In this document: piece after piece, positions 16,432 through 64,000 of the stretch
Layout of the letters: every line of letters begins with the position of its first letter
Position numbering within the stretch: the first letter of the stretch is position 1
Source: Candidatus Pacearchaeota archaeon UBA92
GTDB lineage: Archaea; Nanobdellota; Nanobdellia; Pacearchaeales; GW2011-AR1
DNA: 64,000 nucleotides
NCBI GenBank assembly: GCA_002497285.1
Contig: DANJ01000014.1
Coordinates: 34,089-98,088, forward strand
Direction: 5' to 3'
Notes under the pieces: model-generated
Told to the model about the DNA's origin: nothing
The model's database searches: none
Seen by the model: the letters and a program-made list of their open reading frames with translations, nothing else
Translations under genes and position numbers: made by a program

Positions 16432-16433
16432 AA

Positions 16434-18377: not shown

Positions 18378-18388
18378 GGAGAAAAAAT

Positions 18389-37112: not shown

Positions 37113-37113
37113 C

Positions 37114-44752: not shown

Positions 44753-44753
44753 A

Positions 44754-46270: not shown

Positions 46271-46313
46271 AACAAGAACAAAGTAAAATAGTTTTTATAG
46301 CTTTCTAAGAAAA

Positions 46314-46955
46314 TTAAGCCGCAGCAATTGTAGCAGTAACAACATCTCCCAAATCTCCAGTAGTTGCGTCTTCGGGAATAGTCATGTTAAAGTCTATCCT
46401 TAGAATATCTAAACCCGTATTAAAATTAAACGTTGCACAAAATCTCATTCCAGAAGTATTAACTGGATAAAAGTAGCCAAGCTCATGGCCTCCATTAAGA
46501 AGTGTTGTTGTATTTCCACACGTTCCGCCTACATCAGCAGCAGTACCGTTAGCAGTAACATTCCACTGGTACCCTGGATTAGTACCTCCAAATAAAGTCG
46601 TTGAATTCTTATTAGTTTTCAAATCCAAAGTAACATTAACATTTCCTATATTTTCAAGTATAAATCCTTCCTGTGCAGTCCAGTTTCCATTTGTAACACT
46701 TCCCTTGTGTGTTGTGAGCAATTGTGCCCTTGTCTGCCCTCCATTTATTCTTCCAGAACTCCAATTGATAATCGCATTAGAAAAATTAATAGAAACTGCA
46801 GATTCAATTGTAAGATTTGCCTGTCCTGAAGAAACAAATCCTGTAACCCACGTGTTTTTAAAATTGTTTATTGCTGAATATGTAAATCCTGCTCCAATCG
46901 CGGAAACAAGAACAGCGAAAACTGCAACGATAATCAAAACATTATCAAAGTTCAC
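46314..46955 (-). CDS. secreted Thr/Asn/Gly-rich protein with N-terminal hydrophobic anchor; possible minor pilin-like or S-layer-associated subunit
   Basis: MNFDNVLIIVAVFAVLVSAIGAGF, then a low-complexity N/T/G-rich beta region with many N-x-T sequons. Confidence 0.4.
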   Translation of the reverse strand: MNFDNVLIIVAVFAVLVSAIGAGFTYSAINNFKNTWVTGFVSSGQANLTIESAVSINFSNAIINWSSGRINGGQTRAQLLTTHKGSVTNGNWTAQEGFILENIGNVNVTLDLKTNKNSTTLFGGTNPGYQWNVTANGTAADVGGTCGNTTTLLNGGHELGYFYPVNTSGMRFCATFNFNTGLDILRIDFNMTIPEDATTGDLGDVVTATIAAA

Positions 46956-47143
46956 TTTCCATCTCCTTCTATAATCAAAGCAACATTTCCGCCGGAACTA
47001 ACCGCGCCCCCATTATCTGCAGGAGCAGAATTTTGTCCGACTGGTTTTAAACTAATTAAAGAAAAATTAAGAGCTAAAGAAACGACTGAAAAAACAATCG
47101 CCACAATTAAAAGTGTTACAATAATTTTCTGTGTCTTATTCAT
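46952..47143 (-). CDS. small membrane protein (about 63 aa from MNKTQK), first gene of the minus-strand surface operon
   Basis: MNKTQKIIVTLLIVAIVFSVVSLALNF single TM. The track ORF extends to 47194, but the internal Met at 47143 fits promoter spacing. Confidence 0.35.
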   Translation of the reverse strand: MNKTQKIIVTLLIVAIVFSVVSLALNFSLISLKPVGQNSAPADNGGAVSSGGNVALIIEGDGK

Positions 47144-47169
47144 CTCTTCTTCTCTCCACAAATAAATAA

Positions 47170-47290
47170 ACAAGATATATAAATCTTTCTCCAATTCAGC
47201 ATATACCTAAACACTATTGTCAATGCAGAAACAAAAGTGATTTTCTATAATTGTTTATTACGCCCAAATAGCAAAATTTATATATCCCAA
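47170..47290. promoter_or_regulatory. divergent intergenic region with two TATA-like boxes (ttatatatct for the minus operon, aatttatatatc for the plus gene)
   Basis: A/T-rich TATA-like octamers about 25-40 nt upstream of the respective ATGs (47143 minus, 47306 plus). Archaeal leaderless-type spacing. Confidence 0.2.
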
Positions 47291-47305
47291 ACACCTTATA
47301 AAAAC

Positions 47306-48346
47306 ATGAGTTTAACAGACAAATTAGGAAATAATGTAAAATCAGTAGCGTTAGCTGGAATTATAGGACTCTCTAGCTCTTCGGCTCTTGCAGATACGAT
47401 TTACATAGACACTAACTGGACATTTGATGAAATTAATAATCTCCTGGATGGAAACCCTGAAACCTTTGGAAAAGACGGGCAAACTGACCCAGTGAGAAAT
47501 GATGTAGTTGAATTTGCATTAGGAACATACCAAGTACCATTAATTCGAGATGCAAAATTCAAGTCAAATATAGATGGAATAACAATTATAGGACAAGGGC
47601 CAGGTTTAACAATCTTCAGAGGTAATAGCCCAGATGGTGGATTGATATGGGAAGTACAAGGTCAAGATGTCTCAATCGGATTATTCAGCATGGAGAACAG
47701 CAGAGGCGGATTAAAAGTAGACGGAGACAGAGCTTACAACAACGTTTACGTAGGATATATAGATTCAGAGGGATTGGATATACATTATATTTATGATCAG
47801 CAAAAGGCAAGCGGAAGAATAGACACGCCAAGTGTTTTCGTTGACCACTTAAATCTTATAGACGGAACTACTTCATTCCATTGGAATGACCGAGATCAAA
47901 TAGTTGATTACACAGATAAGTTTATGGAAGGGGATAATGTATCAATAGACGGAACAGGCAATGGAATAGACCCGCCAATGATTATAGAAGATGGACATGT
48001 AATTGAAACAAGGGGAACTGACTGGCGCAATTGTCTATTTCAAAATATGCAGTCAACATTTGTTCCTAGGGCATATGAAGGATTGCCTGGTAGATTAAGT
48101 GGGAATGCACCTTCGTTCTGCGGAGAAAGCAATATTAATCATGCAACTCTTTATGAATTAGGCATAGGCGTTGGAAACTGGGAAGAAAATAATCCAAACA
48201 AATTTCTTGATAACGAAGGAAGACCAATCTGGGGCTCAATAGCAACAGGACCATGGTACAAAGACAGACAAAATAGATTCATTGGATATATCGGAGCAAA
48301 AGAGCCCGCATTCATTCCAAGAGTAAGTGCAGTAAGACCAAGATAA
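47306..48346 (+). CDS. secreted protein with Sec-type signal peptide (start taken at MSLTDK), function unknown; locally GC-richer gene
   Basis: VKSVALAGIIGLSSSSALA|DT signal. No TM after it. Composition noticeably less AT-rich than flanking genes. Confidence 0.45.
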   Translation: MSLTDKLGNNVKSVALAGIIGLSSSSALADTIYIDTNWTFDEINNLLDGNPETFGKDGQTDPVRNDVVEFALGTYQVPLIRDAKFKSNIDGITIIGQGPGLTIFRGNSPDGGLIWEVQGQDVSIGLFSMENSRGGLKVDGDRAYNNVYVGYIDSEGLDIHYIYDQQKASGRIDTPSVFVDHLNLIDGTTSFHWNDRDQIVDYTDKFMEGDNVSIDGTGNGIDPPMIIEDGHVIETRGTDWRNCLFQNMQSTFVPRAYEGLPGRLSGNAPSFCGESNINHATLYELGIGVGNWEENNPNKFLDNEGRPIWGSIATGPWYKDRQNRFIGYIGAKEPAFIPRVSAVRPR

Positions 48347-48392
48347 ATAAGCTCATCTAATTTCTATTTTAAGGTTATATTTTAAAAGACTT

Positions 48393-49595
48393 TTATTTAC
48401 TTCTTCCCTTCAATTTCTTTCTCAAGAAGATAAACCACAAGGCATTGACAATTATCAGCAAGACAATTCCAACGGCCAAAACAACAACTATCGGATTGCT
48501 GAAAAGACTTGAGCTACTTCCTTCTGAAATTACATAACCAATTCCAATAACATTTATTCTATTATTTGAAACATCAAGCTGTAACTCTCTCTGATCCGAC
48601 TTTGAACCATATCTTAAGAACAATGTCGCATCATAAACTCCTGCCTTAACTCCCTCACTATCCCAAAATGCAACCATCACCGACTTGCTCAATGCTGAAA
48701 TATCGTAAGTAGGAGACTTGAAGTCTGCCATGACTTCTCCTTTATTGTTATAAATCTGCATCTCGGCATAAGTTCCTGAAAGTTCTCTATTCCATTTATT
48801 CTCAACTAAAATCTCAAACTTTGCAATACCTCCTAATGAGAAATCATTTACAACTATACTGCTAACATCAAGAACTTGTTGTCCTAAATCAAACTCTCTC
48901 TCTAGTTTCAAAGTTTGTTCATCATAAACTAACGTTGCAACAGCCCTATATGGTCCAGGAGGAACGTCTCCTTTCCAAACAACTGCAACCTCTTTTCTCT
49001 CCCCACTTTTAATTTCAATCTGATTTGTAGTTACACTATCAATTTTCTCATTCAAAGAACTATAAATATCAATGTCTGCTCTAACTCTTACAAGATCTAA
49101 ATCTCCTCTGCTTGTAACTGGAATAACAAAGGTAACACTCCCATCAGCATCTGGACCAAGAACATCAAGGCTTGCCTCAGCATACTTTCCAGGATAGAGA
49201 ACGAATACATGAACTTGTGTAGCTACTGCAACGGCTGCGCCAATAAAAGCCCCTCCCGTTCCTGATTTCTTAGGAAGTTGAACAACAACAATTTCTCCTT
49301 TATGCAATCCTGGAGAAAGAGAATTAGGAATATCTATTTTATACTTCAATTTCTTCTCACTTTCTCCCGCAAGCATTTTAAATGAAACTTCAGAAACCGA
49401 AATACTTTCATTCAAGTCTCCTTGTATAAGAACTGCAAAGTCAGAGTCCTGTGCATCTGTATTAATGACAATGAATTCTATTTCTCTTGATGTTCCAGGA
49501 TTATAATCTACATCAGTCTTTCCAGGAGTTATTCCTATAGCAAAAACATTTGTTGCAAGTAAAATAAACAACAATATTAAACTAATTTTCTTCAT
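48393..49595 (-). CDS. type I membrane surface protein (start at MKKISLILLFILLATNVFA; C-terminal TM anchor)
   Basis: Signal peptide at the internal Met (49595). C-terminal VVLAVGIVLLIIVNALWFIFLRKKLKGRSK. Same architecture as the 42705-46270 proteins. Confidence 0.55.
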   Translation of the reverse strand: MKKISLILLFILLATNVFAIGITPGKTDVDYNPGTSREIEFIVINTDAQDSDFAVLIQGDLNESISVSEVSFKMLAGESEKKLKYKIDIPNSLSPGLHKGEIVVVQLPKKSGTGGAFIGAAVAVATQVHVFVLYPGKYAEASLDVLGPDADGSVTFVIPVTSRGDLDLVRVRADIDIYSSLNEKIDSVTTNQIEIKSGERKEVAVVWKGDVPPGPYRAVATLVYDEQTLKLEREFDLGQQVLDVSSIVVNDFSLGGIAKFEILVENKWNRELSGTYAEMQIYNNKGEVMADFKSPTYDISALSKSVMVAFWDSEGVKAGVYDATLFLRYGSKSDQRELQLDVSNNRINVIGIGYVISEGSSSSLFSNPIVVVLAVGIVLLIIVNALWFIFLRKKLKGRSK

Positions 49596-50082
49596 TTTCT
49601 CCTCCAACAAATTTATTTCCAGAAACTTCTTTTCCCTCGTCAACTCGAAGAACAACACTTCCACTAAGCTCATCATTCTCATAAATATCCACATTGAGAA
49701 CATTATTACCAGCATTTACAACTTCATAACTATCCTCTCCTAATGACTTAACTTTTAAAGCAATCCCAGAAACAATGGTTAGTTTTCTCACCTCGCTTGA
49801 CAATGGTCCTTGAACCTTCCAGTAATAAACTCCCGACTTCAAATTTATCACTAAATTGTCCTCTGCAAAGATTTCCTGAGGTGAAGTGAAAGAAGGATTA
49901 TCATCTAAAAGTATCAAATTAGCATTATTAAATTCAAATAGTACGGAAGAATTAGTTGTTTCATATCCATTAACAGGTGAAATAACAAGCGGCGTCACAT
50001 AACCAACTACAAAAAATAAACTGATTAAAGTTCCAACTATTATAACAAAATCAATCGCCAAAATATGTCTATTCGTTATCAT
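49582..50082 (-). CDS. small N-terminally anchored surface protein (166 aa)
   Basis: TM ILAIDFVIIVGTLISLFFVVGYV. Stop overlaps the downstream start by 14 nt. Start abuts the giant gene's stop. Confidence 0.45.
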   Translation of the reverse strand: MITNRHILAIDFVIIVGTLISLFFVVGYVTPLVISPVNGYETTNSSVLFEFNNANLILLDDNPSFTSPQEIFAEDNLVINLKSGVYYWKVQGPLSSEVRKLTIVSGIALKVKSLGEDSYEVVNAGNNVLNVDIYENDELSGSVVLRVDEGKEVSGNKFVGGENEEN

Positions 50083-53000
50083 TTATTCTCCCAAGCTTGC
50101 AGTAAAGGTAATAGTTGAATTCCTAGCTCCTGCAAATTCCTCCGTAGGTACAGTAACATTGATATCAATTTCAGCCGTATCTGTAGCATTTGTATAATTT
50201 AGCTCCACTATAGCCAACACAGAAGAACCTGTGTCCGGAATTTGAGTATAGATAAATTTAGATAACAACCAGTTAAAAGAACTATTTTCAAGAGTGTTGT
50301 TGTCTGCTTTAAAAGTATAATAATTGCTTGGATTCGCCTGTGTAATCCAAAGACCAGTTGCACCTAAAGTAATGTTCACAAAAGAATTTCCATCATTCTG
50401 TAAAAGGAAAGGTCTCGGAGAATTATCAGAAGTATCATTGAATCCAAACTGTGCTATGGATCCAAAATCAACGGTTGAATTTAGAAGGCTTATCTGAATA
50501 AGTGCTGAAACATTTAAGGCAAAAGATTCAGTCCATGCAGAGAATTCTTCAGCATCATAAACCCTTATGCTCCAGTTATACCTATAAGAATTATCATACA
50601 AATAAACCAAATCCCCTCCGCCTATTGGTTCACTTCCTAAATCATAGCTGTTAGTATCAATAGTTTCTACATACCTTGTATCATCTCCTCTGTTTGTGCA
50701 TCCTCCTCCGGAAGTGTGAAAACAGGTGATGTTAAGGTCATAATAAAGCACGTCAGAATCATCATCACTGCTTGCACCCCATGCGAAAACAGGAGTCCTG
50801 TCTGTGGTCGACGCCCCATTAGCCGGCGTTGAAAGCGCAGGCACTATTGGAGGCGTGTTCAATATTTTAATTGTCTGCGTGGAATTAGCCCAGTTACTCT
50901 GTGAAATCTGATTATCGAACAATCTCAATGAACATGTCCAATTCTGTCCCTTTGTTGTGTTACCAGAATATAAAATTGCATCAAAGGCACTTCCATTTGC
51001 ATAGCTGTTATTAAATTCTGCAGTCAAATGTATCTTGCTTTCATTATACCATAGAACTGTAACATTCATAGCTTCATTGTCCTGGTCATATATTGTATCT
51101 ATACAATGTAGGTTCTGAGCTGTCTTGTTAGTTCCAAGAGTTGAATTTATTTCAGGAGTTGGAGTGTCTGGAGCTAAATTTCCTTGGGCAGAATTCACAT
51201 CAAAATCTCTAATCTGACTTTCGTTATTATTACCGCCATTATCGGTGGCATTCAATCTCCAATTATACTTGCCAACCCCAAGCGTGTATGTGTCAGCTAT
51301 TTCACTTGCAGTCAGAGTCTTATTCCAAATTGCAATTTCATCTATAGTTCCATTAAATCCTCCAGGAGCTCCAGAACCAACAGCAGTTTTAGTAGTAGAA
51401 CCAATTAGTAAGGGATTTGTATTACTAAATATTGAATACGTGCCTTCATTCGTACCAGCAACAGCTCCGTTAATATAAAATTTAATTGTCGTTGCATTGA
51501 CGGTAACTGCTACATGATTCCATTTATTTCTTGAAATAATATTTGAACTGGAATTGACAGGAGAGTCTGCTCCTGTATCAAACATCGTTCCATTTGATGT
51601 ATAATTAAACATGAACCAGAATCCATCATTTCCCCCTCCCGTCTCATCATCCTTAGAGACTATAAATCCATCATATCCATCTAAGTTAGGATATATCCAA
51701 ACCATAACAGTTAAATTTGAGACATTTAACAAAGCACCGCTTGGAGAAGACAAATAACTGGTATAACTAACTCCTGGAAGAATAATTCCTCCGCCAAGCT
51801 TGCCGCCGCTTTCATTAACTAATGCACCTCCAGAAAGATTACCGCTGCCTCCATGATCACTATAATCATAATACCTTGTATCATTCTCCCCATACTCGCT
51901 TCTATTATCCAAATGCAGTAGCAGAACACTAAATTCATCTGGAATAATAACTGGAGATGTCCAATTATAAATCACAAAAGAATTATTAGGGATAGTATTT
52001 TGATAGATAAGCCCGTGCTTGTAAAGATTTGCCTGTAAACTTGAATTTATTCCGAATATTCTTGTCTTCAAAACATCATTATAAGTATCATTTACAGTCG
52101 CATTTAAAATAATATTGAGAGAACCATAAGTAAATTGACTTGCATTATTAGGAGAATTTAATATAAAGTTTGGCGAGGGATTATTAAGGTTTGTAAATAC
52201 AATATTCAAATTTCTTGTAACATTGAGAGGTATTCCACTATCACTATATCCTATCTTGCTTGTATTCACACTATAATTGCTCTGAAGAATTACAACTCCT
52301 CCTGCTAAAGTTCCATTAACTATATATTCGGATATTCTATATCCCGCATCTCCAGTTGAATTTGTTAGTTCAGAGTCTGTAGCAGAACCGGTATTATTGA
52401 AAAAAGTCACGTTAACATTTGATACAAAATTACTCAATGTGTCATTAGTTTTAACATTCACAAACCACTGCTTATACAATCTTCCTCCAGGGTTGACGGT
52501 ATGGGTGCTGTAATTTGAGCTGACAAGATAAATACTCTGATTTCCGCTGATAACAATATTAGAAAGAAAGGACCCTGAAAGATTAGAATCAAGTATGCTA
52601 ACATTGTTACAGAATACACAGAAAATATTGTAATTTGACCTTCCTCCAGCCCCATCAGCCCCAAAAAATCGGGAGTTAGTAAGAATAATATTTTCTGATA
52701 AAATTTCTATATCTGCATCAAAAGCCTTGGAAACTGTATTATTATCAAAAACTAAACTAGATGTATTTATAGAAAGTCCTCTTCTCATATTAATTGCTTC
52801 TGTATTTCCAGTATAACTGACATAAGAATTCTTCAGGCTAAGATTAGAGCCCTGCCCAACTTGAAATAAAAATCTGAAATCATTATTTTTAGTTATGTTA
52901 GAATAATTAGCTGACAATGTTCCGCCATCAGAAACATAAAGATTGAACTCTCCGTCAAAATTCGAATTGCTCATTTCCAAAGTGCAGGATTCCAGAATTA

Positions 53001-56000
53001 ACTTTCCAATTGTTATGTTTATATTTGCATGACTAATATACCAGCATGGGTTCACAGAAGTACTAGAGTTAGTAAATACAGTATTATCATTAATCCTTGT
53101 ATAAATATCATACAGACTTTCAGTTGTGCTGACAACAATTGTATGAAAAACGCTGATTGGGAGATTCAATTCTTTATCCGTAGTCATATTAATACTTGCG
53201 CCAGTTGCAGGCTGATATCCAGCTTTAGAATAATTAACAGTATAGTTATTCCAAATAACCTTTCCAGCTCCTGTATCTGTATATTGAGTAAGATTATAGA
53301 ATACCGAACCTTGAGCATCTGTATTAATGGAAAATACCTTAGTTCCTGTCCTGTTTGTTGCAGTCATATTAACTCCTGAAATTACTGCTCCAGCACTTTT
53401 TACTGTCGCATTAAGTCTAAACTTTCTTTCTAAAACACTATTAGCTCCAACACTATATGAAGTAATGTCAGTAGAGTTGATAAGTGTAAAAGTATTATTT
53501 ATCTTTATATTGCTGAATGAAATCAAACTATCACTAATATTAATAGGGGTATTGAAGTTGGCTTCAGTAATACTTCCTTTAGAATCAACAAAGAAGTAAG
53601 GATCGCCAATAATACTAAAGTTATAATTATTTGCAATAACTACTGCATTCATAGATCCTACACTCAAATTAAGAGTTCCTGAAAGATACAATGAATATTG
53701 CCCCTCATAACTTGAATTAAAGAATACTGTACATCTTGAATCAACATCAAGTCTACCCGAATTAGTAATGTTCAAATTCGTATCAAGGGAAATACAACTA
53801 ACAAGAGTTGAATCTCCAACCTGGCACGTTGAAGTATAATTGGTTCCAAACCCAAGTTCCAGAGCTTTTGAAAGCAAATCATCACAAGTAAAGGTATTTG
53901 AAATTTTCAGATGTTCTGGTCTTGTAATAATTTTCCTTTGGTTAGTTTGATTCTTATTACCTGCCTTATCAACCACATAAGCAGTGAACGGATGAATTGT
54001 AGAATTAAGATTAGTAAAATTATTCTCATACCTATTGATTCCAGAGTCATACAAAGCAAGAATCTCGCTCTGATTTAATTCCCTAGAAAACATGAATACT
54101 TCATCCATCGTTCCGTTCATATAAAAAGTCTGAGTTCCAGATCTCCCAACATATAAATTATTTGTTGAATCTGATGTAACTGTATAAGTTCCATTTCCAT
54201 CAATTGTTCCATTCAGATACAAATAAGCATAACTTCCGTTATAAGTGACTGCAATATGATACCATCTTCCTGTACTAAGAGTTGTTGCTCCTGGTAATGA
54301 CTGCAAGCCCGGGTCAAAAAGAGTTAATTTATTACTTGCTACACGAAGAGAGACTCCATTACTTAAACTACCAGTTTTACCCATAAGTCCCTGATTGACT
54401 GTATCATTAAGATAAATCCAAGAAGCCCAAGTGAAAGGACCATTTAGAGTAAGACTATTAGCCTTTCCAAAATCAATATAATCTGTCGCGCCATCGAAAT
54501 AAAACCCATTCCCATAAAATCCAGCATCAACCTGAACAGCATCACCCTGTTTTGTACCATTATTGCCCCAAGAAGACAAGTCCACAACATCTCCAGAATC
54601 ATTAACATCATCCATCCTAGCCCACAAAACTAAACTCCTATTAAAATCAACAAATGAATAATGCCTATTCGCATCTGAAGTCGATAAGTTAACATATATT
54701 GCATTTCCCGTTATCGCAGTATCATTTGCAGGAGTTGGAGAGATAAAGCTCACTCCGGGTTTAGCGTCATCAAAACTGAAATTGACAAATTGGCTATAAT
54801 TTTTATTTCCTGTTGTATCATTAGCATAAACTCTGAAAATAAAACTTCCAGAGCCCAATGAAGAATTAGTTGCATTAAGTTCTACACCCAAAACTCCTCT
54901 GGAAAGATTAAGCATAGTTAAATTGTTAATTCCTTCATCAAGAGTATATTGGGCGCTTCCACTCTCACTCAAAGTTACATTAAATAACAGCGGTAAATCT
55001 GACAAGCCGTAATAAGCTCCTCCTTGAGGCTTACGAATAATCACTCCAGGAGCACTTGTATCTGACTCTGGCGGGGAAGTCAAGGGAAGCGTTATCACTT
55101 GCCAAGCAACATAAGCATCATTGTTTCCTGCTTCCCTGTGTAGGCTTAATGCTGTAGGACTGTCTAAAGCGTTTGTATAAAAAAGATTAGCAAAGATAAT
55201 TCCTGTTCCGGTGAGATTATTGGAAGCGAGCGAGAAGCTCCTGTTTTGAACGACAGAACTTATGGTTATAACATCATCCCCACTACTTAAATAATAAGAA
55301 GAACCATTCTGGACAACAGCTCCCGGGGTCGATATAACATAAGCCCCGATGTAAGCAGCACCTCCAGAACCTTCTCTAGCAACTCTAAGAGTTGTAGAAT
55401 TCCATATTTCTACAGTTGTACCTATCTCGGCCAGAACATTTGCCGTGGCTGTAAACGTCTGTGAATAATAGACCCATGAATTTGACGTGTTTATTACTGC
55501 TCCTATTGGCACAAAATCATTTGTTCCTAGGAGGTCTTCGACATGGTAGACTGTAGAGCCATCATTGAACTCAACAACAAAATAACTTATATTTCCTGCG
55601 CAAGCACCAGAATCAGCTCTTTGAAGGTTTAAGTTTGTGTTGCTAGTAAAATTAGCCGCCCAATATTGTTCGTTTTCATTGGCGGTATTAGTAGTTGTAC
55701 AGCTACCATAATTGACAAATGGAACTGTCTTAGTCAAATCAACAGAATCTAGAGTAATATCAAAATTAGTATCTGTTGTTATATATTCTACTGTTCCGTT
55801 TTGGACACTAATATTGTTTCCTTCTATAACATACCATGCAACTGTAGTGGTTGAAGAAGCGCCAACATTATTCAATGCAAATCTTGTAGTATTTACCCAC
55901 GTTGCATATATTCCAGTGTTATCAGGATCATCTCCTGAGGTTGTCGCTCTTCTTGAAAGAAGAATAAAAGATTTATTCAACTGTACTGCTTGGGAAATAT

Positions 56001-58803
56001 CTACAAAGCTCGGACTTGAAGCCATTGTTACCTCTCCACCTTCTGTCCACCACTGAACATTATTATCTACAGGGTCTATTATATGGTCAAACTCGACGCT
56101 TCCTCCAATAATTTTCAAGTCAAATGTATCCTGTTCGCCTTGTAATCCTGATAAAAATACTTTATTATACTCATTGTCATTTAGATTATCAAATTCTGCA
56201 ATTATTTCATTTCCATTAAATTCGTATACTTCAATTCTTGGTGTCCCATTGACTGCCCTTGGATAAACAGTTATATCGTTTTCACTTGTCAGATTTTTTT
56301 CAAAAGTAACTCGAACATAATGTGTATCTGGAATTATTTCAGTCCAGTTCCCATCCAATTCCCTCGCCTGCTCATATATATCCGAAATGAACGTTCTATT
56401 TTCATCCAAATGCTCCGCATTTGTAATTACAATAATATCAAATGTTTGATTAGACAAACGAGGAGCTATCCATTCAACGTAATCCATTATGCCGTTGCTA
56501 TTATTATCACTGGCGCCTAAAACAGAAAGATAGGTCATATTTTCAACCCAATAAATTCTTATTTTGGATGCATCTGCAATTCCAAGGCTTTCATTCAATT
56601 CTGTAAATGCAAGAACATTTTCATAATGCACATCGGCCGGTGAGAATATTCTTACCCTCTTGCCATTCACAAGTTCCTCTTCTTCAGAATAAGGCGCATC
56701 AGTATAATACTCTATTTCAACGGCATCTTCAGTTGCATTTAATTCTACAAGAACCTCCTGCGTTGCATTTTCCTCCTCGGAAACAACGAGTCCTGTAAAT
56801 CTCAAAAGCCCCCTAAAAAATTTAGAGAAAGCAGATTTCCTTTCAATATTCAATTCAGCAGTGACTTTTCCAGAAATAACATTTCCGGACAAGCCGACAC
56901 TTATTTCCTTTGGCTCCTCTGCATTTTCAACTGCATTTTCATCGCTTGCACCCGCATTTTCGACATTTGTATTTTCATTCTCGGCAATTGTATTTTCACT
57001 TTCAGGAACATTAGTTTGAGTTATATTTTCATCTGCAGGAGCAATTGTATTTTCCTCTTCTGCAATTGTATTTTCACCTTCTGAAGCATTTCCATTTTCA
57101 GCATTTGCATTTCCACTTTCGGAAGCATCTGCATTTTTACCTTCGGCAATTGTATTTTCATTTTCAGGAATATTTTCGTCCTCATCTAATTTTACAACCG
57201 AAATATTTCCCGCACTTAAAGGCAGTTCAACAACAACATTGGCAGGCCCTGCAATTTCAACTTTCTTATTCCACTTGACAGGTTTGCCCAAAACTGCAGA
57301 ATATTGGGTAATATTAACACTTACATTTTCAACCAAGCTAACATTTGCAAGCGTGTTATTTGCAAGAGTGATATTTTTATCTAGAAGAGTAACATTAGTT
57401 TCATTAAAATCAGGCAATGTAACATTTTCTTCGGGCAAAACAACTTCTTCATCAACGGCCTCAACAGAAATGTCTTTTTCGACATCAACTATGATTTCAT
57501 CGCCATAAACAAGTCTAACACTGAAGATAGAATTATTTTTAGCGACAAAGGCAAAAGATGACAAATCCACTTCAAGCTTCAAATTGCCACTGCTCAAATA
57601 TTCTTCGCCAAACCCTTCTTCGCTTACAGAATATTTAGTAGAAACTTCAAGATTATTTTTCTGAACCTTCAAGTCTATCTCGCCGTCGCCAATCTCTTCT
57701 CCATCAACATTAACACTCCCTGAAACTATTCTCGCACCCTCGCCTTCATTAATTTCATACTCAAAGCTATTGTCTTTGCTTACTTTTCCTGAAATGATAT
57801 TTCCTTCAGATATAACTCCTCCTGTAATTCCTGAATCTCCGCCTGAATCTCCGCCTGAATCGCCACTACTCGAATCACCTCCGGAACTTCCGCCATCCCC
57901 GCCAGAATCGCCGCTTGAACTGCCCGAATCGCCTCCACTTGAACTTTCACTGCCAGAGCTTCCATCGCTTCCTGATTCTGTTCCTGCACTTCCGCCCTCC
58001 CCCGAACTTCCATCCACTCCAGAATTCCCAGCATTTCCAGAGTCGCCAGTTCCTTCAGTCAAACCTCCATCATTAGAATTTGTAGAATCAACAGGCGCAT
58101 TTGTAGAATCGGAAGGTATATCTTCGGGAGGAAGAGCACCATCGGCAACAGAACCATCTCCAGATGTATCAACCCCAGTTTCTCCAGAAGCATCGGAACC
58201 AGAAGCATCGGAGCCAGAAGCATCAGTAGCACTATCTCCACTCTCTTCAGAAGTTGCATTGTCACCATTTGAGCCATCATTGCCCCCTTCAACTGCACCC
58301 TTGTCACTATTAAAAATTTCCAGCTGGAATTCAACATCAGGATAAACTTCTTTCTCTCCAATCAGCCCATATCCTTCTCCTGCCCCAGAAATACTTCTGC
58401 CTTCAGCATAAAAATCACCATCAGTCGTTTCAGAATTTACAAGCTCGGAAAGCAAAAACTCTTTCTCCTCTCCGTTATAACTGACAATTACTTTTGAATC
58501 TGCAGGAATCAATTCTCCAGATTTTAAATTTAGATTTAAATTTCCCGCAATTTCCTCGCCAATTTGATAATTTGATTTTATATCTAATGAAACTCTTCCG
58601 GTAAATCCTGAAAAAAAGAAAAATAAAAGTAAGAGAACTGCAAACAATCCAAAAAGAAAAATCGGTAAAATTAATCTTCTATTACTTCGAGGCGGTTCAC
58701 TGCCTAAATAAGTTGTAACGACCTCTCCATTGACTCTTTTAGTTTCATAATAATATGGACCAAACCTCTTTCCATCTTTGTAAGTATACTTCTTATGAAC
58801 CAT
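50083..58803 (-). CDS. giant (2906 aa) N-terminally anchored surface adhesin-like protein with Ser/Gly/Asp low-complexity stalk, beta-helix-like repeats and two LamG/ConA-like lectin modules
   Basis: N-terminal cytoplasmic segment plus TM (RRLILPIFLFGLFAVLLLLFFFF). SGD-rich stalk. LamG_3-like endings MDEVFMFSRELNQSEILALYDSG and IDEIAIWNKTLTASEIADTY. Very many N-x-S/T sequons. Intact single ORF of 8.7 kb. Confidence 0.7.
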   Translation of the reverse strand: MVHKKYTYKDGKRFGPYYYETKRVNGEVVTTYLGSEPPRSNRRLILPIFLFGLFAVLLLLFFFFSGFTGRVSLDIKSNYQIGEEIAGNLNLNLKSGELIPADSKVIVSYNGEEKEFLLSELVNSETTDGDFYAEGRSISGAGEGYGLIGEKEVYPDVEFQLEIFNSDKGAVEGGNDGSNGDNATSEESGDSATDASGSDASGSDASGETGVDTSGDGSVADGALPPEDIPSDSTNAPVDSTNSNDGGLTEGTGDSGNAGNSGVDGSSGEGGSAGTESGSDGSSGSESSSGGDSGSSSGDSGGDGGSSGGDSSSGDSGGDSGGDSGITGGVISEGNIISGKVSKDNSFEYEINEGEGARIVSGSVNVDGEEIGDGEIDLKVQKNNLEVSTKYSVSEEGFGEEYLSSGNLKLEVDLSSFAFVAKNNSIFSVRLVYGDEIIVDVEKDISVEAVDEEVVLPEENVTLPDFNETNVTLLDKNITLANNTLANVSLVENVSVNITQYSAVLGKPVKWNKKVEIAGPANVVVELPLSAGNISVVKLDEDENIPENENTIAEGKNADASESGNANAENGNASEGENTIAEEENTIAPADENITQTNVPESENTIAENENTNVENAGASDENAVENAEEPKEISVGLSGNVISGKVTAELNIERKSAFSKFFRGLLRFTGLVVSEEENATQEVLVELNATEDAVEIEYYTDAPYSEEEELVNGKRVRIFSPADVHYENVLAFTELNESLGIADASKIRIYWVENMTYLSVLGASDNNSNGIMDYVEWIAPRLSNQTFDIIVITNAEHLDENRTFISDIYEQARELDGNWTEIIPDTHYVRVTFEKNLTSENDITVYPRAVNGTPRIEVYEFNGNEIIAEFDNLNDNEYNKVFLSGLQGEQDTFDLKIIGGSVEFDHIIDPVDNNVQWWTEGGEVTMASSPSFVDISQAVQLNKSFILLSRRATTSGDDPDNTGIYATWVNTTRFALNNVGASSTTTVAWYVIEGNNISVQNGTVEYITTDTNFDITLDSVDLTKTVPFVNYGSCTTTNTANENEQYWAANFTSNTNLNLQRADSGACAGNISYFVVEFNDGSTVYHVEDLLGTNDFVPIGAVINTSNSWVYYSQTFTATANVLAEIGTTVEIWNSTTLRVAREGSGGAAYIGAYVISTPGAVVQNGSSYYLSSGDDVITISSVVQNRSFSLASNNLTGTGIIFANLFYTNALDSPTALSLHREAGNNDAYVAWQVITLPLTSPPESDTSAPGVIIRKPQGGAYYGLSDLPLLFNVTLSESGSAQYTLDEGINNLTMLNLSRGVLGVELNATNSSLGSGSFIFRVYANDTTGNKNYSQFVNFSFDDAKPGVSFISPTPANDTAITGNAIYVNLSTSDANRHYSFVDFNRSLVLWARMDDVNDSGDVVDLSSWGNNGTKQGDAVQVDAGFYGNGFYFDGATDYIDFGKANSLTLNGPFTWASWIYLNDTVNQGLMGKTGSLSNGVSLRVASNKLTLFDPGLQSLPGATTLSTGRWYHIAVTYNGSYAYLYLNGTIDGNGTYTVTSDSTNNLYVGRSGTQTFYMNGTMDEVFMFSRELNQSEILALYDSGINRYENNFTNLNSTIHPFTAYVVDKAGNKNQTNQRKIITRPEHLKISNTFTCDDLLSKALELGFGTNYTSTCQVGDSTLVSCISLDTNLNITNSGRLDVDSRCTVFFNSSYEGQYSLYLSGTLNLSVGSMNAVVIANNYNFSIIGDPYFFVDSKGSITEANFNTPINISDSLISFSNIKINNTFTLINSTDITSYSVGANSVLERKFRLNATVKSAGAVISGVNMTATNRTGTKVFSINTDAQGSVFYNLTQYTDTGAGKVIWNNYTVNYSKAGYQPATGASINMTTDKELNLPISVFHTIVVSTTESLYDIYTRINDNTVFTNSSTSVNPCWYISHANINITIGKLILESCTLEMSNSNFDGEFNLYVSDGGTLSANYSNITKNNDFRFLFQVGQGSNLSLKNSYVSYTGNTEAINMRRGLSINTSSLVFDNNTVSKAFDADIEILSENIILTNSRFFGADGAGGRSNYNIFCVFCNNVSILDSNLSGSFLSNIVISGNQSIYLVSSNYSTHTVNPGGRLYKQWFVNVKTNDTLSNFVSNVNVTFFNNTGSATDSELTNSTGDAGYRISEYIVNGTLAGGVVILQSNYSVNTSKIGYSDSGIPLNVTRNLNIVFTNLNNPSPNFILNSPNNASQFTYGSLNIILNATVNDTYNDVLKTRIFGINSSLQANLYKHGLIYQNTIPNNSFVIYNWTSPVIIPDEFSVLLLHLDNRSEYGENDTRYYDYSDHGGSGNLSGGALVNESGGKLGGGIILPGVSYTSYLSSPSGALLNVSNLTVMVWIYPNLDGYDGFIVSKDDETGGGNDGFWFMFNYTSNGTMFDTGADSPVNSSSNIISRNKWNHVAVTVNATTIKFYINGAVAGTNEGTYSIFSNTNPLLIGSTTKTAVGSGAPGGFNGTIDEIAIWNKTLTASEIADTYTLGVGKYNWRLNATDNGGNNNESQIRDFDVNSAQGNLAPDTPTPEINSTLGTNKTAQNLHCIDTIYDQDNEAMNVTVLWYNESKIHLTAEFNNSYANGSAFDAILYSGNTTKGQNWTCSLRLFDNQISQSNWANSTQTIKILNTPPIVPALSTPANGASTTDRTPVFAWGASSDDDSDVLYYDLNITCFHTSGGGCTNRGDDTRYVETIDTNSYDLGSEPIGGGDLVYLYDNSYRYNWSIRVYDAEEFSAWTESFALNVSALIQISLLNSTVDFGSIAQFGFNDTSDNSPRPFLLQNDGNSFVNITLGATGLWITQANPSNYYTFKADNNTLENSSFNWLLSKFIYTQIPDTGSSVLAIVELNYTNATDTAEIDINVTVPTEEFAGARNSTITFTASLGE
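56870..57190. repeat. in-frame short tandem repeats (ENTIAE-type) inside the giant gene
   Basis: gcaattgtattttc recurs four or more times (56984, 57041, 57062, 57139), encoding ENTIAE/NENTIA units. Confidence 0.5.
57820..58260. repeat. low-complexity codon repeats (SGD/SGS and GSDAS units) inside the giant gene
   Basis: cctgaatctccgcct x3 and agaagcatcgga(a/g)cc x3, encoding SGDSGG... and GSDASGSDASGSDAS. Confidence 0.5.
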
Positions 58804-58923: not shown

Positions 58924-60846
58924 TTAAAAGTAAATTCCGGTCTCGTTAAATTCAACATCTACTCCGCCACTGTTGTTGAAATATCCATCGCCACAATAAT
59001 CTAACTCTCCGCCATCAACCAGTCCATCATTATCATTATCCAATGTATCAGAACATTGCTCATATGTCGTAGGAATTGCCGGAACTCCCTCACTCAAATT
59101 CAGCCTTCCTATTTCATCATCACTTGCATTAAGGAAAACATAAGTATCGGTGCCTATAAGCCTTATCTTTGAATATCCCTTTGATTCATCCGTAAATCTC
59201 TTATATCCATCCCTTGCATACTGCCTTGCCCCTCCGTTGAAGTTAGTCATAGCTTCCAACCCAAAATTAACTTTAAAAGTAAGTTTTTTAGCAGGCACCC
59301 ATGAAGCCCAGGCGATAGAATCAAATCCCTCAAAGAATGAATGCGTCAAAGATGAAGGTATAAAATATTTCTGATAATCTGTAGTATAAAAATAAAATGG
59401 TCCTCCATATTCTGTAGATGAAAGCCCTTTACCCATGATTCCATTATCTTTCCATAAATCTCTTATCCATTGCGCAACATATCCATGATCTTGATAGTAA
59501 TTTGACCTAAAGTGTATATCAAGGTAATCATAATAAGATGAGGAGTTTATTATGAAGTCTTCTATTTTCTCAACCGAACTTTCATCAATATCTTTAGGTG
59601 TGTTGTTTATAATCCCATTTTCAAGAAACCCATCATAAGTTATGTTCTCAAGATTAAATCCTCTCTTTAAAGCAAAATTATCTACTCCTGTCAATCCATA
59701 AGTTATCATTGGAAGTCTTTCTTCTCCAGGATTCAGGCTCTCTTGAGCTTCCTGCATTGCAGAATAAGTTAAGTTCATCAACTTTATCATGCTTTCAAAC
59801 TTAACCTCCTGGATCGTGTTCCTAGGGTCGCAAGTCGGATTACCTGTAGTGTTAACAACAAACTGATGACTCCATTCATTCCCTAATTGTATCCCTGCAA
59901 GAACTGATTCCGACCCGTTATTTACAGGCTGCACATAATACTTGTCAACGACAAACTTAACATAATTTGTCCATTCGGCTTCATTCTTAGGATAAGAATC
60001 TCTTTCATCAATACTTCTCTCTCCAATTTGATAAGAACATGTACTTCGGTTAGGGTCATTTGCCTTTATTGTCAAAAGGATTTTAGTATTCTCGCTTTTA
60101 TAGAATAAAGTTGCATTATTAAATATATCTTCCTTGAAACTCCCATCCCCATTATAAACATTATGCCATGAGATTATTAGTCTATGAAACTCTGCCCCTA
60201 CTGCCGAAGTAGCTGGAAGATGTAAAGCACCGACACTATGAAACCCTATATAAGGCATAGGCTCTATATTTGAATTAATCAAACCATTTCTTATTCTCGT
60301 GCAATTATCCTCAAAATCGTCAAGATAAACTATTCCTTTATTTATCTCACATCCATCTCCTTCAGTTTCATTACCTTCCCCGAGCCCTGATAATTCTTCA
60401 GAGCATGAAACAGAAGCGCCGGTAAATCCACAGATATTATTTCCAAGAACTGAAGCGACATCAACACTCACAATCTCTCTCCCAGAGCGGTTAAAATCAA
60501 ATATATAATTCTTAGATCCAAATTCTCTCGGAACGCTATTATTCGACAAAATAAAAGTCTTGCCCTTAGAATCCTTAAACAAAAATTTCAGTTCACTAAT
60601 CTGCGAACTACCTATTCCCCTATTAACCTTTACAGAATAGATTGCCTCTCCCGAATCGCTACAACTCTTTACAGCTAAATCAAGTTTGGCGCAAACAATT
60701 AAATTATTTATCGAACCATTTTCATTCGAACCAAGTTTTTCAAGCAATAAAGGCTGAACAAAAAGCCAGATTATTGAAATAGAAATCAAAGAGATGAGAA
60801 TTATGAGAACAATCGCAATTATCTCACTCAACCCCCTCTTTAACAT
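58924..60846 (-). CDS. exported protein with class III (prepilin-type) signal peptide, pilin-like N-domain, TIM-barrel glycoside-hydrolase-like domain (GNEW motif) and C-terminal Ca-binding DxDxDG-like module
   Basis: MLKRGLSEIIAIVLIILISLISISIIWLF; C..LDL.V..C N-domain; AGIQLGNEWSHQF (clan GH-A-like acid/base NE); C-terminal CSDTLDNDNDGLVDGGELDYC. Confidence 0.65.
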   Translation of the reverse strand: MLKRGLSEIIAIVLIILISLISISIIWLFVQPLLLEKLGSNENGSINNLIVCAKLDLAVKSCSDSGEAIYSVKVNRGIGSSQISELKFLFKDSKGKTFILSNNSVPREFGSKNYIFDFNRSGREIVSVDVASVLGNNICGFTGASVSCSEELSGLGEGNETEGDGCEINKGIVYLDDFEDNCTRIRNGLINSNIEPMPYIGFHSVGALHLPATSAVGAEFHRLIISWHNVYNGDGSFKEDIFNNATLFYKSENTKILLTIKANDPNRSTCSYQIGERSIDERDSYPKNEAEWTNYVKFVVDKYYVQPVNNGSESVLAGIQLGNEWSHQFVVNTTGNPTCDPRNTIQEVKFESMIKLMNLTYSAMQEAQESLNPGEERLPMITYGLTGVDNFALKRGFNLENITYDGFLENGIINNTPKDIDESSVEKIEDFIINSSSYYDYLDIHFRSNYYQDHGYVAQWIRDLWKDNGIMGKGLSSTEYGGPFYFYTTDYQKYFIPSSLTHSFFEGFDSIAWASWVPAKKLTFKVNFGLEAMTNFNGGARQYARDGYKRFTDESKGYSKIRLIGTDTYVFLNASDDEIGRLNLSEGVPAIPTTYEQCSDTLDNDNDGLVDGGELDYCGDGYFNNSGGVDVEFNETGIYF

Positions 60847-60887: not shown

Positions 60888-61268
60888 TTAAAAAAATCTT
60901 CCTCTTTTCATATTCGCAAATTTCCTATGCATAATCTCAACATTCCTGTCGCAGACAAAATCGTGCTGCCTGAAACCCCCGCCGAAAGTTTTAGGAATAT
61001 GCATAAGCTCATGTATAATCACCTTGTCCTGTTCATCTTTATTCATCCGTTCAAATCTCTCCAAAAATTCTATTGCATAATGCGCCTTAACTCCTATTGC
61101 CTTCTGCATTAGCTTTCCTATTGTATGACAACGCGCGATAATCCTCTTAGTTGAACTTCCAGAACTCCTAAAACATTTCACCCTCTCAATGGCTATATGC
61201 TCCATCTCAAGGAATTTCGCAATTTCTTCCATCCTATTTTGTAAGTCTTCAGCGTATTCGTATTTCAT
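60888..61268 (-). CDS. DUF45/YgjP-like HExxH metal-dependent hydrolase (SprT-like fold)
   Basis: VKCFRSSGSSTKRIIARCH (like RxWGSCS..G.IRLN) followed by IIHELMHIPKTFGGGFRQH (HExxH...H). Confidence 0.5.
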   Translation of the reverse strand: MKYEYAEDLQNRMEEIAKFLEMEHIAIERVKCFRSSGSSTKRIIARCHTIGKLMQKAIGVKAHYAIEFLERFERMNKDEQDKVIIHELMHIPKTFGGGFRQHDFVCDRNVEIMHRKFANMKRGRFF

Positions 61269-61969: not shown

Positions 61970-64000
61970 TTAGAACGTAAATATCCAATTATTTTCAGAA
62001 AATCCTTCAGGGTCTATGCAGTTTAGAGTCTGCCTTTTTTGACCATTGCACTTAGTAGGATCCGCTAAATTGTAATAATCATAACATCCTGAATCAGCTT
62101 GATCAGGTAAACCATCTCCGTCATTATCCATTCCATCAGAACATTGGTACAAGCTCGGATATGGGGGCAAGTCCTTGCTAAGATTAAGTTCTTTCTCAAC
62201 AGCTCCAATCTTGAAAGATAATAATTCTCCATGTCTGGAGACCGTATCAAAATTCTTAGACAAGCCCTGAAAGTAAGTGTAATTATAGATTTGCGGAAGC
62301 TGATACCCAGCGCCCCCGTTAAACTTCATGGATGTCTGCAGCAGGTTAGGTGATGCAGGAGAAGGATTCCAGTTTCCCCATACAATTGCATCAAAGCCTG
62401 AATGATAAGCAACTGCCTGTGCTGCTTTGATATTATAACTATGGAGGTCATAACTGTAATTGTATATTGGATTCGCAAACTCGGTAGAGATAAGCCCTTT
62501 TCCCGTTATTCCATTAAGTCTCCACGTGTCCCTGACGAAATTAGCCACATATCTTGCGCCCTCTGGGGATTGGAAATATATATGTGCATCAAAATAATCA
62601 TAAAATGCAGAACCATTGACCACGGCAGATTTCGCACTAGTTATAGGGTCCTGCTTAACACTCTGCCGGGTTGCGATTGTGATTCCATTCAGCCCGTTAT
62701 TAGTTTTATAATATATTCCATCGTATTTCCATCCCTGCTCATCATAGCCTGCTCCAAGAGCCATGTTTGGGGTATCGGAAATCGCAAAAGCTATCACTGG
62801 AATATTTGGGGATACCTCTTTTATAAAATTGTAGCTTAGGTTCATAAGGTCAAGAATAGCCTGTTGTTCTTCTTCCTGTGTATATCGGCCATATGACTCA
62901 TTGACCTTAAATTGATGTCCCCATTCATTACCGACCTGGATGGCGACAAGAACTCCCTGATGCTCTGGAGTAGGATTGGCATAATACCTATCAGTAACAT
63001 TTTTTAGATAATCAACCCAATCATCTTCCTGACCAAATTTAGGCCAGGAATCATCCTGGAGTAAGGTCTGAGAATTTGGATTAAATTCAATCTCAGAACG
63101 GATAGGGTGATTAGCTCTTAAAGTCAAAATTACTTTCATATTTGCAGCCTTGTATCCAACAATTTTCTGGTCAAGTTCAGTAAAATCAAGCGGTGCATCC
63201 AATTCTAGAGTATCATACATTTCATACCACTGTATTATGTCCCTTCCATAAGAAGCTCCTGTTGCTGCAGCTCTGCTCCAATCAGATCCTATAACTCTCA
63301 AGCCTGCTGAAGGGATTTTGTCTACTCCGCTGGCAACAAGCCCATTTCTCGTTCTTGTGCATGTTGATTCATCAAAGTCTGATAAAGGAATGATAGTTAT
63401 ACCAAAATCATCGCAAGATTGACCCAATTGCCCTTCTAATTGACAAGTAGAGCTACATCCATCACCATCCTCAATATTCCCGTCATCACATTCTTCTCCT
63501 ATTTCTTTATTTCCATTACCGCACTCGATATTAGATTCGGGCTCTTCCAAACAGTTTACAGGCGTATCCGTAAACTCACATGCTTCTCCGTTTTGAAATA
63601 TAATTGTTGTCCTGACATTTTTAGGAATCTGTTCGAACTTATCCAAACTAAAGACTATTGTTGAATGTCCAAATTCATTAGGAACTTCCCCTCTTAAGGA
63701 ATCTTTTAAGAATAGATTGGAAACACTTCCATCAAACTTAAAAGCCAAACTAGATATCTCTTGTTGTCCCACTCCTCTGCCAACTCCAACCTTTACCGAG
63801 CTTTCGTTATAAAAACATGAATCTGTTCTAATATCCAATTCAGCACATGAAATAAAACTTGTAAGTTGCCCATTATCTTCTCCGCTTCCAATTATTCCAA
63901 TTATAGAAGGTTGAATAAAAAGCCAGATTATTGAAATACTTACAATAGAAATTAATAGTAAAAGGAGAACAGTTACAACACCCGACAGCCCTCTTTTTTG
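61970..64000 (-). CDS. exported protein with class III signal peptide, pilin-like N-domain and GH-like TIM-barrel domain (paralog of 58924..60846); N-terminus runs off the window
   Basis: Reverse translation of 63839..64000 continues the ORF upstream of the track's Met: QKRGLSGVVTTVLLLLISIVSISIIWLFIQPSIIGIIGSGEDNGQLTSFISCAELDIRTDSC. Then VAIQVGNEWGHQF and C-terminal CSDGMDNDGDGLPDQADSGCYDY. Confidence 0.65.
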   Translation of the reverse strand, partial: QKRGLSGVVTVLLLLLISIVSISIIWLFIQPSIIGIIGSGEDNGQLTSFISCAELDIRTDSCFYNESSVKVGVGRGVGQQEISSLAFKFDGSVSNLFLKDSLRGEVPNEFGHSTIVFSLDKFEQIPKNVRTTIIFQNGEACEFTDTPVNCLEEPESNIECGNGNKEIGEECDDGNIEDGDGCSSTCQLEGQLGQSCDDFGITIIPLSDFDESTCTRTRNGLVASGVDKIPSAGLRVIGSDWSRAAATGASYGRDIIQWYEMYDTLELDAPLDFTELDQKIVGYKAANMKVILTLRANHPIRSEIEFNPNSQTLLQDDSWPKFGQEDDWVDYLKNVTDRYYANPTPEHQGVLVAIQVGNEWGHQFKVNESYGRYTQEEEQQAILDLMNLSYNFIKEVSPNIPVIAFAISDTPNMALGAGYDEQGWKYDGIYYKTNNGLNGITIATRQSVKQDPITSAKSAVVNGSAFYDYFDAHIYFQSPEGARYVANFVRDTWRLNGITGKGLISTEFANPIYNYSYDLHSYNIKAAQAVAYHSGFDAIVWGNWNPSPASPNLLQTSMKFNGGAGYQLPQIYNYTYFQGLSKNFDTVSRHGELLSFKIGAVEKELNLSKDLPPYPSLYQCSDGMDNDGDGLPDQADSGCYDYYNLADPTKCNGQKRQTLNCIDPEGFSENNWIFTF

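Follow-up and report, generated by a model that had tools for sequence, protein, structure and literature searches.

A giant gene in a small-genome archaeon

The window analysed here is a stretch of 64,000 nucleotides (nt) from contig DANJ01000014.1 of Candidatus Pacearchaeota archaeon UBA92. At 50083..58803 on its reverse strand lies a gene for a giant protein of 2906 amino acids (313 kDa before glycosylation, isoelectric point ~4.2), and all coordinates within this gene refer to that (-) strand. The open reading frame (ORF) has an ATG start, 2906 codons and zero internal stops, so the 8.7-kb ORF that the original prediction, made from the sequence alone, had read as intact is indeed uninterrupted; its translation start matches the start of homologues. 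An identical protein is found on 8 public contigs, one of them a groundwater metagenome. The protein is a member of a family whose conserved parts are the two ends, its LamG lectin-type modules being exchangeable, and we regard it as probably an adhesin.

The window is archaeal, of the Pacearchaeota/Woesearchaeota (DPANN) type. Its genes include those for aIF5B, aIF2-gamma, ribosomal protein S6e and Kae1, its GC content is ~34%, and the closest match among species-representative genomes is a Pacearchaeota metagenome-assembled genome (MAG). Related proteins sit on single contigs of 660-760 kb, which fits sub-megabase genomes and agrees with the small genome originally supposed for the host. Scans of the window for tRNA genes and Rfam families came back empty, and a sigma-70 promoter/terminator scan, whose model is not applicable to archaea, gave background level.

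The whole protein holds one hydrophobic segment, at residues 44-66, and no second one, the C-terminus included. The sequence has 131 N-x-S/T sequons, where shuffled versions have 60 +/- 6, an excess far above chance that fits an extracellular glycoprotein. The first 400 residues are almost free of them.

The N-terminal module

The first 165 residues make up a module of three parts. A basic beta-meander at residues 1-40 (MVHKKYTYKDGKRFGPYYYETKRVNGEVVTTYLG; 58684..58803), delineated by alignment and AlphaFold2 and predicted to be cytoplasmic, precedes the transmembrane (TM) helix at residues 44-66 (58606..58674), which hydrophobicity and AlphaFold2 suggest to be a signal-anchor of N-in/C-out orientation. 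A juxtamembrane beta-sandwich at residues 67-165 (58309..58605) follows, as defined by the homologue alignment and AlphaFold2. The AlphaFold2 model of the module, built with a 50-sequence alignment (A1), has a predicted local distance difference test (pLDDT) score of 83 overall and shows a three-stranded meander at residues 2-34 (pLDDT ~95), a helix at residues 42-63 and a beta-sandwich at residues 70-146. Because the flank ahead of the TM helix (the N-terminal 44 residues) carries 10 K/R versus 4 D/E, we read the N-terminus as cytoplasmic; the lone hydrophobic segment after this basic flank bears out the short cytosolic N-terminus and TM segment originally proposed. A cleavable Sec signal was rejected by inference, as the n-region is 43 residues long and folded, the helix has 22 residues and no AxA-type site follows it.

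The meander is the family's most conserved short motif. Its consensus in homologues, MVHKKYTYKxGKRFGPYYYETKRVxGKVVTTYLG, is followed by the TM helix, and G15, P16, Y17, Y19 and Y32 are invariant in A1. After the helix, the sandwich carries the motif TG.V.LD...Y..GE.I.G.L.L.LK.GELIP.DS. Over the module as a whole, the window protein is 38-65% identical to the 49 homologues in A1. Searches of Pfam, NCBIfam and PDB sequences gave zero matches covering the 165-residue module, and no second copy of the N-terminal motif GPY.Y was found in the window.

A profile of the module, run against 1.84 billion proteins, matched 1,903 representatives (clusters at 50% identity), 560 of them at E 1e-30 or better. 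The module stands at or near the N-terminus in 150 of the 150 matches listed, in proteins of 165 to 5,116 residues, some of the short ones perhaps being truncated at contig ends. With one genome scanned per species, 265 module loci were found; the 80 loci listed come from 77 MAGs, and all but four are labelled Pacearchaeota, Woesearchaeota or Nanoarchaeota, those four being just 'archaeon'.

Variation exists at the extreme N-terminus. Six homologues (P0008, P0021, P0057, P0062, P0069, P0070) have a Lys/Glu-rich, apparently helical head of ~90 residues instead of the meander before the TM helix, and three (P0027, P0038, P0045) have a short N-terminus only, without a cytoplasmic head. Since the meander is replaced or absent in these homologues, the cytoplasmic head is modular. 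On the extracellular side, a short motif, (F/I)(T/S)G(K/R)V, opens three blocks as FTGRV, ISGKV and ISGKV (sites 57790-57801, 56866-56877 and 58591-58602; residues 67-71, 337-341 and 643-647), in two of the three cases directly after a low-complexity linker; homologues show ITG.V or LTG.V. The motif may signal where a domain begins or where the protein is processed.

The meander bears some likeness to UBP, a nucleoid-associated DNA-binding protein of Sulfolobus islandicus (PDB 9efd/9eff) in which K63, K67 and K69 of a 'stirrup' hairpin are required for DNA binding (PMC12141716). UBP was the top PDB match of the N-terminal model in Foldseek (probability 0.96, E 0.68, 46 columns, 30% identity) and again the top PDB match of residues 1-43 in phmmer (E 0.17), and a post-hoc hhalign comparison of the family profile with UBP residues 44-81 gave a probability of 75% and a P of 2.5e-5; these statistics are weak, Foldseek is not independent of sequence, and the UBP fold is covered only at residues 44-81. 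That part of UBP, which includes the DNA-contacting stirrup, aligns to the 34-residue meander, and the nearly invariant R23 and the consensus K27 of the meander align with K63 and K67. UBP is a soluble dimer, whereas the meander of the giant protein is fused to a TM helix. A relationship between the two is a hypothesis suggested by a weak resemblance.

Giant serine-rich-repeat adhesins of Gram-positive bacteria carry an extended N-terminal signal of the KxYKxGKxW type. They share with the giant protein a basic N-terminus with Y-K-x-G-K-x-aromatic (here YKDGKRF) before a hydrophobic helix, and likewise have a Ser-rich low-complexity stalk after the helix and then binding domains. These adhesins are bacterial, however, and the archaeal motif is part of a folded, three-stranded unit of 34 residues. 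NCBIfam gave zero matches to the giant N-terminus at E up to 1, the presence of a KxYKxGKxW model in the library being assumed, and no accessory-Sec (SecA2/Y2-like) genes were found among the neighbours. The resemblance is a lead only.

Stalk and base modules

Beyond the juxtamembrane sandwich comes a Ser/Gly/Asp low-complexity stalk (residues 174-328; 57820..58284), 69% G/S/D and with in-frame micro-repeats of 9, 12 and 15 nt, much as the original prediction had described it from its codon repeats. Two conserved modules follow, B (residues 335-545; 57169..57801; 43 homologues, 26-49% identity) and C (residues 640-935; 55999..56886; 48 homologues, 30-67% identity). Between them lies an acidic ENTIA/Asn-Glu-Ala linker (residues 546-636; 56896..57168) with the tandem repeats that had also been noted: ENTIA occurs four times in residues 549-607, within an imperfect array of 21-nt period (57041-57160, 71% matches).

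Module C is the best-conserved extracellular block, with 45 invariant columns in alignment A2, and holds a Ca-loop-like D..(S/D)NGI.DYVEW motif. Pfam gave zero matches to module B, module C matched nothing in Pfam or among PDB sequences, and hhalign found module C and the C-terminal region unrelated. The next stretch, a variable Asn/Thr-rich region (residues 940-1250; 55054..55986), is common only to the 3-4 closest homologues.

LamG modules, beta-solenoid stretches and tip

Both of the LamG-type modules that were predicted to end in a DE(V/I)...SEI sequence are found by Pfam. Laminin_G_3 matches two stretches of the protein (whole protein E 3e-44, 151 bits), each above the gathering cut-off of 27.6 bits: module 1 at residues 1437-1581 (54061..54495; alone E 3e-23, 83 bits) and module 2 at residues 2348-2503 (51295..51762). 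The two are 35% identical over 110 residues, and the DE(V/I)...SEI motifs are located at residues 1566-1585 and 2487-2506.

Structure prediction, which had been proposed as a check on the lectin-like fold, agrees for module 2. The AlphaFold2 model of the distal half (residues 1707-2906; 17-row alignment, mean pLDDT 72.8) forms a jelly-roll there, at pLDDT 55-85, behind a low-confidence stretch at residues 2209-2286. Against the PDB, Foldseek matched the distal model to botulinum neurotoxin (BoNT) receptor-binding (Hc) domains at E ~1e-7, to a trans-sialidase lectin-like domain and to FN3 and macroglobulin arrays. Against viral models, it matched many phage proteins labelled 'LamG-like jellyroll' or 'ConA-like lectin' (best A0A6J5NKQ5, TM-score 0.68, 28% identity) and one DUF1565 beta-helix phage protein.

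Between the LamG modules, the model places two beta-solenoid stretches, each followed by a CarboxypepD_reg-like beta-sandwich (residues 1736-2206; 52186..53598). Short, regularly spaced strands of solenoid type run through residues 1736-1786 and ~1890-2105 (pLDDT ~80-90, from a ~5-sequence alignment), and CarboxypepD_reg matches one of the post-solenoid sandwiches weakly (E 6e-4). At residues 1736-1786 and ~1910-2105, the DSSP pattern of the model would suit a solenoid with coils of roughly 22-27 residues and about three short strands in each. This region is rare in the family, as only P0001-3, P0199 and P0200 align to it and a renewed homologue search with residues 1620-2300 added just two proteins. 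The Pfam beta-helix models PF13229 and PF05048 matched neither the whole protein nor segments at E up to 10, and Pfam run on seven separate segments, again at E up to 10, returned just the weak CarboxypepD_reg match. For the beta-helix-like stretches originally proposed, only the modelled strand pattern speaks, and the Pfam beta-helix families do not match; a beta-helix reading is plausible on the model, whose alignment is shallow there. NCBIfam gave nothing meaningful on the giant protein, and PDB sequence searches gave no credible match to the N-terminal profile, the module C profile or residues 940-1290, 1620-2300 and 2540-2906.

The conserved C-terminal tip (residues 2551-2906; 50086..51153), delineated from homologues and AlphaFold2, consists of about three FN3/Ig-like beta-sandwiches. 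All three are modelled with confidence (pLDDT 80-90), and Foldseek matches them to FN3 arrays. In 29 of the 29 homologues that cover it (39-63% identity), the tip lies at the C-terminus or at most ~11 residues from it. It is without a C-terminal anchor, and neither a C-terminal hydrophobic helix nor an NCBIfam sorting signal of the PGF-CTERM/archaeosortase type was found in the giant protein.

Conserved ends and a variable middle

A search for homologues yielded 71 proteins that are 1,600-5,004 residues long. Those named to taxon are Pacearchaeota, Woesearchaeota or Nanoarchaeota, with the exception of one 'uncultured marine group II/III euryarchaeote' clone, and several carry the NCBI label 'LamG domain-containing protein [Candidatus Pacearchaeota archaeon]'. 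Mapped onto the query by BLAST, the homologues share blocks at residues 1-150 (54 homologues), 330-900 (37-52), 1250-1620 (~40) and 2300-2906 (~35). The stalk and residues 950-1250 and 1650-2250 are common to few. By sequence comparison, the family is defined by the N-terminal module, the base of ~900 residues and the C-terminal tip of ~360 residues, and LamG is not a defining feature. The window protein has the 165-residue N-terminal module, module C and the tip, and is the first row of the three corresponding alignments (A1, A2 and A3).

Four homologue loci were fetched, with best local alignments 40-63% identical to the giant protein. The gene order, confirmed by tblastn, is kept among them: the metallopeptidase-like gene for a 126-residue protein, sometimes a gene for a 640-residue protein, the giant gene, dn166, dn400, dn63-dn213-dn361-dn144-dn345-dn337-dn107-dn114-dn54 and Kae1, with the order at locus L005 confirmed only to dn361 and locus L007 having no dn63 match. 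Because this order is shared, the giants of the window and of the four loci are positional orthologues. In 23 of the 80 loci listed from the genome collection, the same metallopeptidase-like gene stands directly upstream of the giant, and 3 of the 77 genomes among the loci listed have a second giant copy.

The syntenic orthologues are 1,636, 1,988, 2,906, 3,463 and 4,664 residues long and contain 1, 0, 2, 2 and 9 LamG modules, respectively; a homologue from a locus outside this set (P0003) has 3. With a count that ranges from 0 to 9 among syntenic orthologues, LamG is therefore a cargo that can be exchanged while its scaffold stays conserved.

Repeats without polymorphism

The original prediction held that short DNA repeats in the gene could mediate length or phase variation, and here the data point the other way. 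The stalk contains a 12-nt unit in 2.7 copies at 100% identity (57830-57861) and a 15-nt unit in 2.7 copies at 96% (58184-58224). All tandem repeat periods in the stalk and the ENTIA block (9, 12, 15, 21, 24 and 39 nt) are divisible by three, and slippage would therefore preserve the reading frame. The longest array has 5.7 copies, and perfect or near-perfect arrays have fewer than 3. Homopolymers in the gene and in the spacer upstream of it reach 7 nt at most, with none of 8 nt or more. (AT)4 is the sole run of a dinucleotide, and multi-copy microsatellites that are out of frame were not found; units that are not multiples of three reach ~2 copies except for (AT)4.

The 8,721-nt gene is base-for-base identical in three other assemblies (ENA ERZ909571, from SRR1534154; Logan SRR5037140; ENA ERZ27293400), whose 17-24 kb of overlap with the window are 100% identical; these are consensus assemblies, perhaps of one population, in which minority alleles are hidden. 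Repeat copy number is accordingly invariant across assemblies, an outcome that the original prediction had itself named as one that would tell against it and that holds here at the level of the consensus. On/off phase variation is not supported, as it has no substrate in this gene. In-frame length variation is possible in principle, and none was observed in the consensus assemblies. The stalk is poorly conserved among homologues and varies in length and sequence across species, as low-complexity linkers commonly do.

Neighbouring genes

Directly downstream of the giant gene, dn166 (166 residues, TM; 49582-50082, -) starts where it abuts the giant's stop codon, and dn400 (400 residues, signal and TM; 48393-49595, -) overlaps dn166. 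Both probably share a transcription unit with the giant gene, and both are kept in order after it in four other genomes, at 34-64% and 43-65% identity. They belong to a cluster of eight TM- or signal-bearing proteins at 42705-50082 (-), namely dn166, dn400, dn63, dn213, dn361, dn144, dn345 and dn337, for which Pfam gave no credible assignment. The cluster includes two paralogue pairs, dn400/dn361 and dn345/dn337, and may represent a surface-structure operon, so far unrecognised, with a link to the giant. A BLAST comparison of the neighbouring surface proteins with the giant protein found no homology.

On the upstream side, the genes at 58924-60846 (-) and 61970-63838 (-) encode paralogues of 640 and 622 residues that are 32% identical, have no Pfam match and both end in a Cys/Asp-rich CSD..DND.DGL.D motif. 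The 640-residue protein begins with a pilin-like (class III) signal, MLKRGLSEIIAIVLIIL. Its gene is not always present at related loci; its positional counterpart in L005 matches Glyco_hydro_56, and the protein may be a secreted glycosidase adjoining the giant gene. Between the paralogues, at 60888-61268 (-), lies the metallopeptidase-like gene, whose 126-residue HExxH product matches Pfam PhageMetallopep at E 3e-20 and is 62-86% identical across genomes. Its position upstream of the giant may reflect a functional link or mere conserved order.

Other features of the window stand apart from the giant gene. Genes for a bacterial-type DNA gyrase A and B occur at 34405-39003 (-) amid an otherwise archaeal gene set. 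A defence island at 12002-24185 (+) comprises a DUF2779/RNase-H-like protein (12002-13519), a DrmD-like SNF2 helicase (13516-16431; PADLOC DrmD, E 1e-222), a type III methyltransferase (16434-18377; E 6e-211), a type III restriction enzyme (18389-21313; E 0) and, at its end, two ORFs without matches (21314-22009 and 22002-24185). Four ORFs of 382-737 residues, at 3924-5072, 5298-6605, 6682-8550 and 9716-11929, have no Pfam match.

Discussion

We propose a model where the giant protein is an adhesin that contacts a partner's glycosylated envelope or extracellular polysaccharide. We consider this probable because the protein has extracellular folds of lectin- and receptor-binding type, because its ends are conserved and its middle is variable, because the lineage presumably depends on other cells and because LamG proteins of DPANN archaea have been proposed for such a role in published work. 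The protein would be a type-II (N-in/C-out) anchored, heavily N-glycosylated, fibre-like surface protein. Its basic folded head would remain in the cytoplasm while the helix crosses the membrane, and the base of ~900 residues, made of the meander, TM helix, sandwich, acidic stalk and modules B and C, would anchor the fibre and raise it off the cell. The lineage-variable middle would display binding cassettes, namely the two LamG/ConA-like jelly-rolls, Ig-like domains and units of beta-solenoid and beta-sandwich, and the conserved tip of three beta-sandwich domains would terminate the fibre. Specificity would shift over evolutionary time through swaps of middle cassettes, not through repeat slippage. 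Of this picture, the architecture, the family, the synteny and the constancy of the repeats are observed; topology, glycosylation and adhesion are inferred.

Several considerations count against this proposal. Enzymes and proteins of purely structural function can have LamG_3 domains too. P0012, a syntenic orthologue, has zero LamG modules yet retains base and tip, and therefore the conserved family function cannot depend on LamG. That the distal tip is conserved speaks for a partner that is itself conserved rather than host-specific, and the dependence of this organism on a host is assumed from its lineage. Modules B and C together with residues 940-1250, or ~40% of the protein, are without a fold assignment.

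The same conservation of both ends can be read in another way, in which the giant is a structural component of the envelope, an S-layer-like canopy or spacer of the cell's own wall that recognizes no partner, with LamG and Ig cassettes that bulk out or cross-link the glycocalyx. Such a role would suit a locus that is syntenic among housekeeping genes (from the YchF-like GTPase to Kae1) in at least 5 genomes, that rarely has a second copy and that in a share of cases has the same metallopeptidase-like gene directly upstream (the 3 of 77 genomes and 23 of 80 loci above). It would suit as well the abundance of sequons, a typical trait of archaeal envelope glycoproteins, and the conserved cluster behind the giant gene, with eight further proteins that bear a TM segment or a signal. 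However, the middle turns over very fast (1,636 to 4,664 residues, 0 to 9 LamG), which is unusual for a lattice former, known envelope-anchor signatures, S-layer and PGF-CTERM among them, were not found, and some genomes have two copies. On balance, we think a purely structural role unlikely.

The solenoid stretches invite a different thought, that the giant is a tethered polysaccharide-degrading enzyme with beta-helix segments acting as lyase or hydrolase and LamG domains as carbohydrate-binding modules that feed the catalytic domain. The modelled beta-solenoids, the DUF1565 phage protein among the Foldseek matches, the label of beta-helix repeat protein on some homologues and the secreted glycosidase-like product of the upstream gene at 58924-60846, with its Glyco_hydro_56 match in the L005 counterpart, are all in keeping with it. 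Yet no part of the protein matched a catalytic family of Pfam or NCBIfam, even with segments searched at E up to 10, nor was there any PDB sequence match; the solenoid region, with ~5 homologues, is among the least conserved parts, and catalytic residues are not assignable. These points make an enzymatic role very doubtful. A contingency locus, in which slipped-strand mispairing at short repeats toggles expression or stalk length, can be set aside almost entirely, for although short tandem repeats exist in the stalk and ENTIA block and the stalk differs across species, their periods are in frame, their copies few, the homopolymers and the single dinucleotide run short, and the gene identical in three other assemblies.

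To return to the adhesin, surface proteins with LamG domains in DPANN archaea have been proposed to mediate host attachment (PMC5498576, PMC10266531, PMC7414124). These proteins (arCOG07813-type; 'Ca. Mancarchaeum' Mia14, Nanohaloarchaeota, Undinarchaeota) share with the giant the superphylum-level setting and the Laminin_G_3 domain. Like it, they are extracellular proteins, membrane-bound or secreted, and in many cases very large and specific to their lineage. In the cited papers the LamG domain defines the group, whereas in the giant's family LamG is dispensable. That large LamG surface proteins occur in DPANN is already recognised; what the present analysis adds is a definition of the family's conserved parts, which are absent from the domain databases searched.

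The SPEARE giants of Nanohaloarchaeota (5,000-9,400 residues) are, like the giant protein, DPANN surface arrays of Ig-like and adhesion domains, and each of them accounts for at least ~1% of a very small genome. In addition to an N-terminal Sec signal, SPEARE proteins carry a VirB4/TraG-like ATPase domain, and a gene for a VirB4-like ATPase lies next to theirs (PMC10266531). The giant instead has a single N-terminal TM helix and no ATPase, either within the protein or among its neighbours, and a SPEARE-type secretion device was rejected on this ground. It differs also from archaeal envelope glycoproteins that are anchored or sorted at the C-terminus, its own anchor being N-terminal. The likeness of the LamG2 jelly-roll and sandwich arrays to phage LamG-like tail-fibre or baseplate proteins and to clostridial neurotoxin Hc domains is at the level of domain folds only, and nothing in it suggests a viral origin or toxin function, as the gene sits in a conserved chromosomal locus. 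A viral origin, prompted by the PhageMetallopep neighbour and the phage-like Foldseek matches, was rejected for the same reason, the locus being syntenic between the YchF-like GTPase and Kae1 in five genomes.

Pacearchaeota and Woesearchaeota are small-genome archaea that are abundant and uncultured. The locus described here offers a tangible candidate for the apparatus by which they make contact, and one that is widely conserved. Its eye-catching LamG domains are interchangeable, and hundreds of species share the conserved base, tip and cytoplasmic head. Its layout of conserved ends and a variable middle offers a marker for following the evolution of host range in metagenomes. The present result is an annotation refinement rather than a new mechanism, and the N-terminal module is its most interesting lead. 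It is tempting to speculate that the near-invariant 34-residue meander is a functional head that does more than set the topology and couples surface fibres to the cell interior, through nucleic acid, in view of the likeness to the UBP hairpin, or through a dedicated export or targeting route for giant glycoproteins, by analogy with the KxYKxGKxW signal, although we give this only a small chance. If true, such a role would constitute an unrecognised mechanism, specific to Pacearchaeota and Woesearchaeota, that ties surface contact proteins to cytoplasmic machinery.

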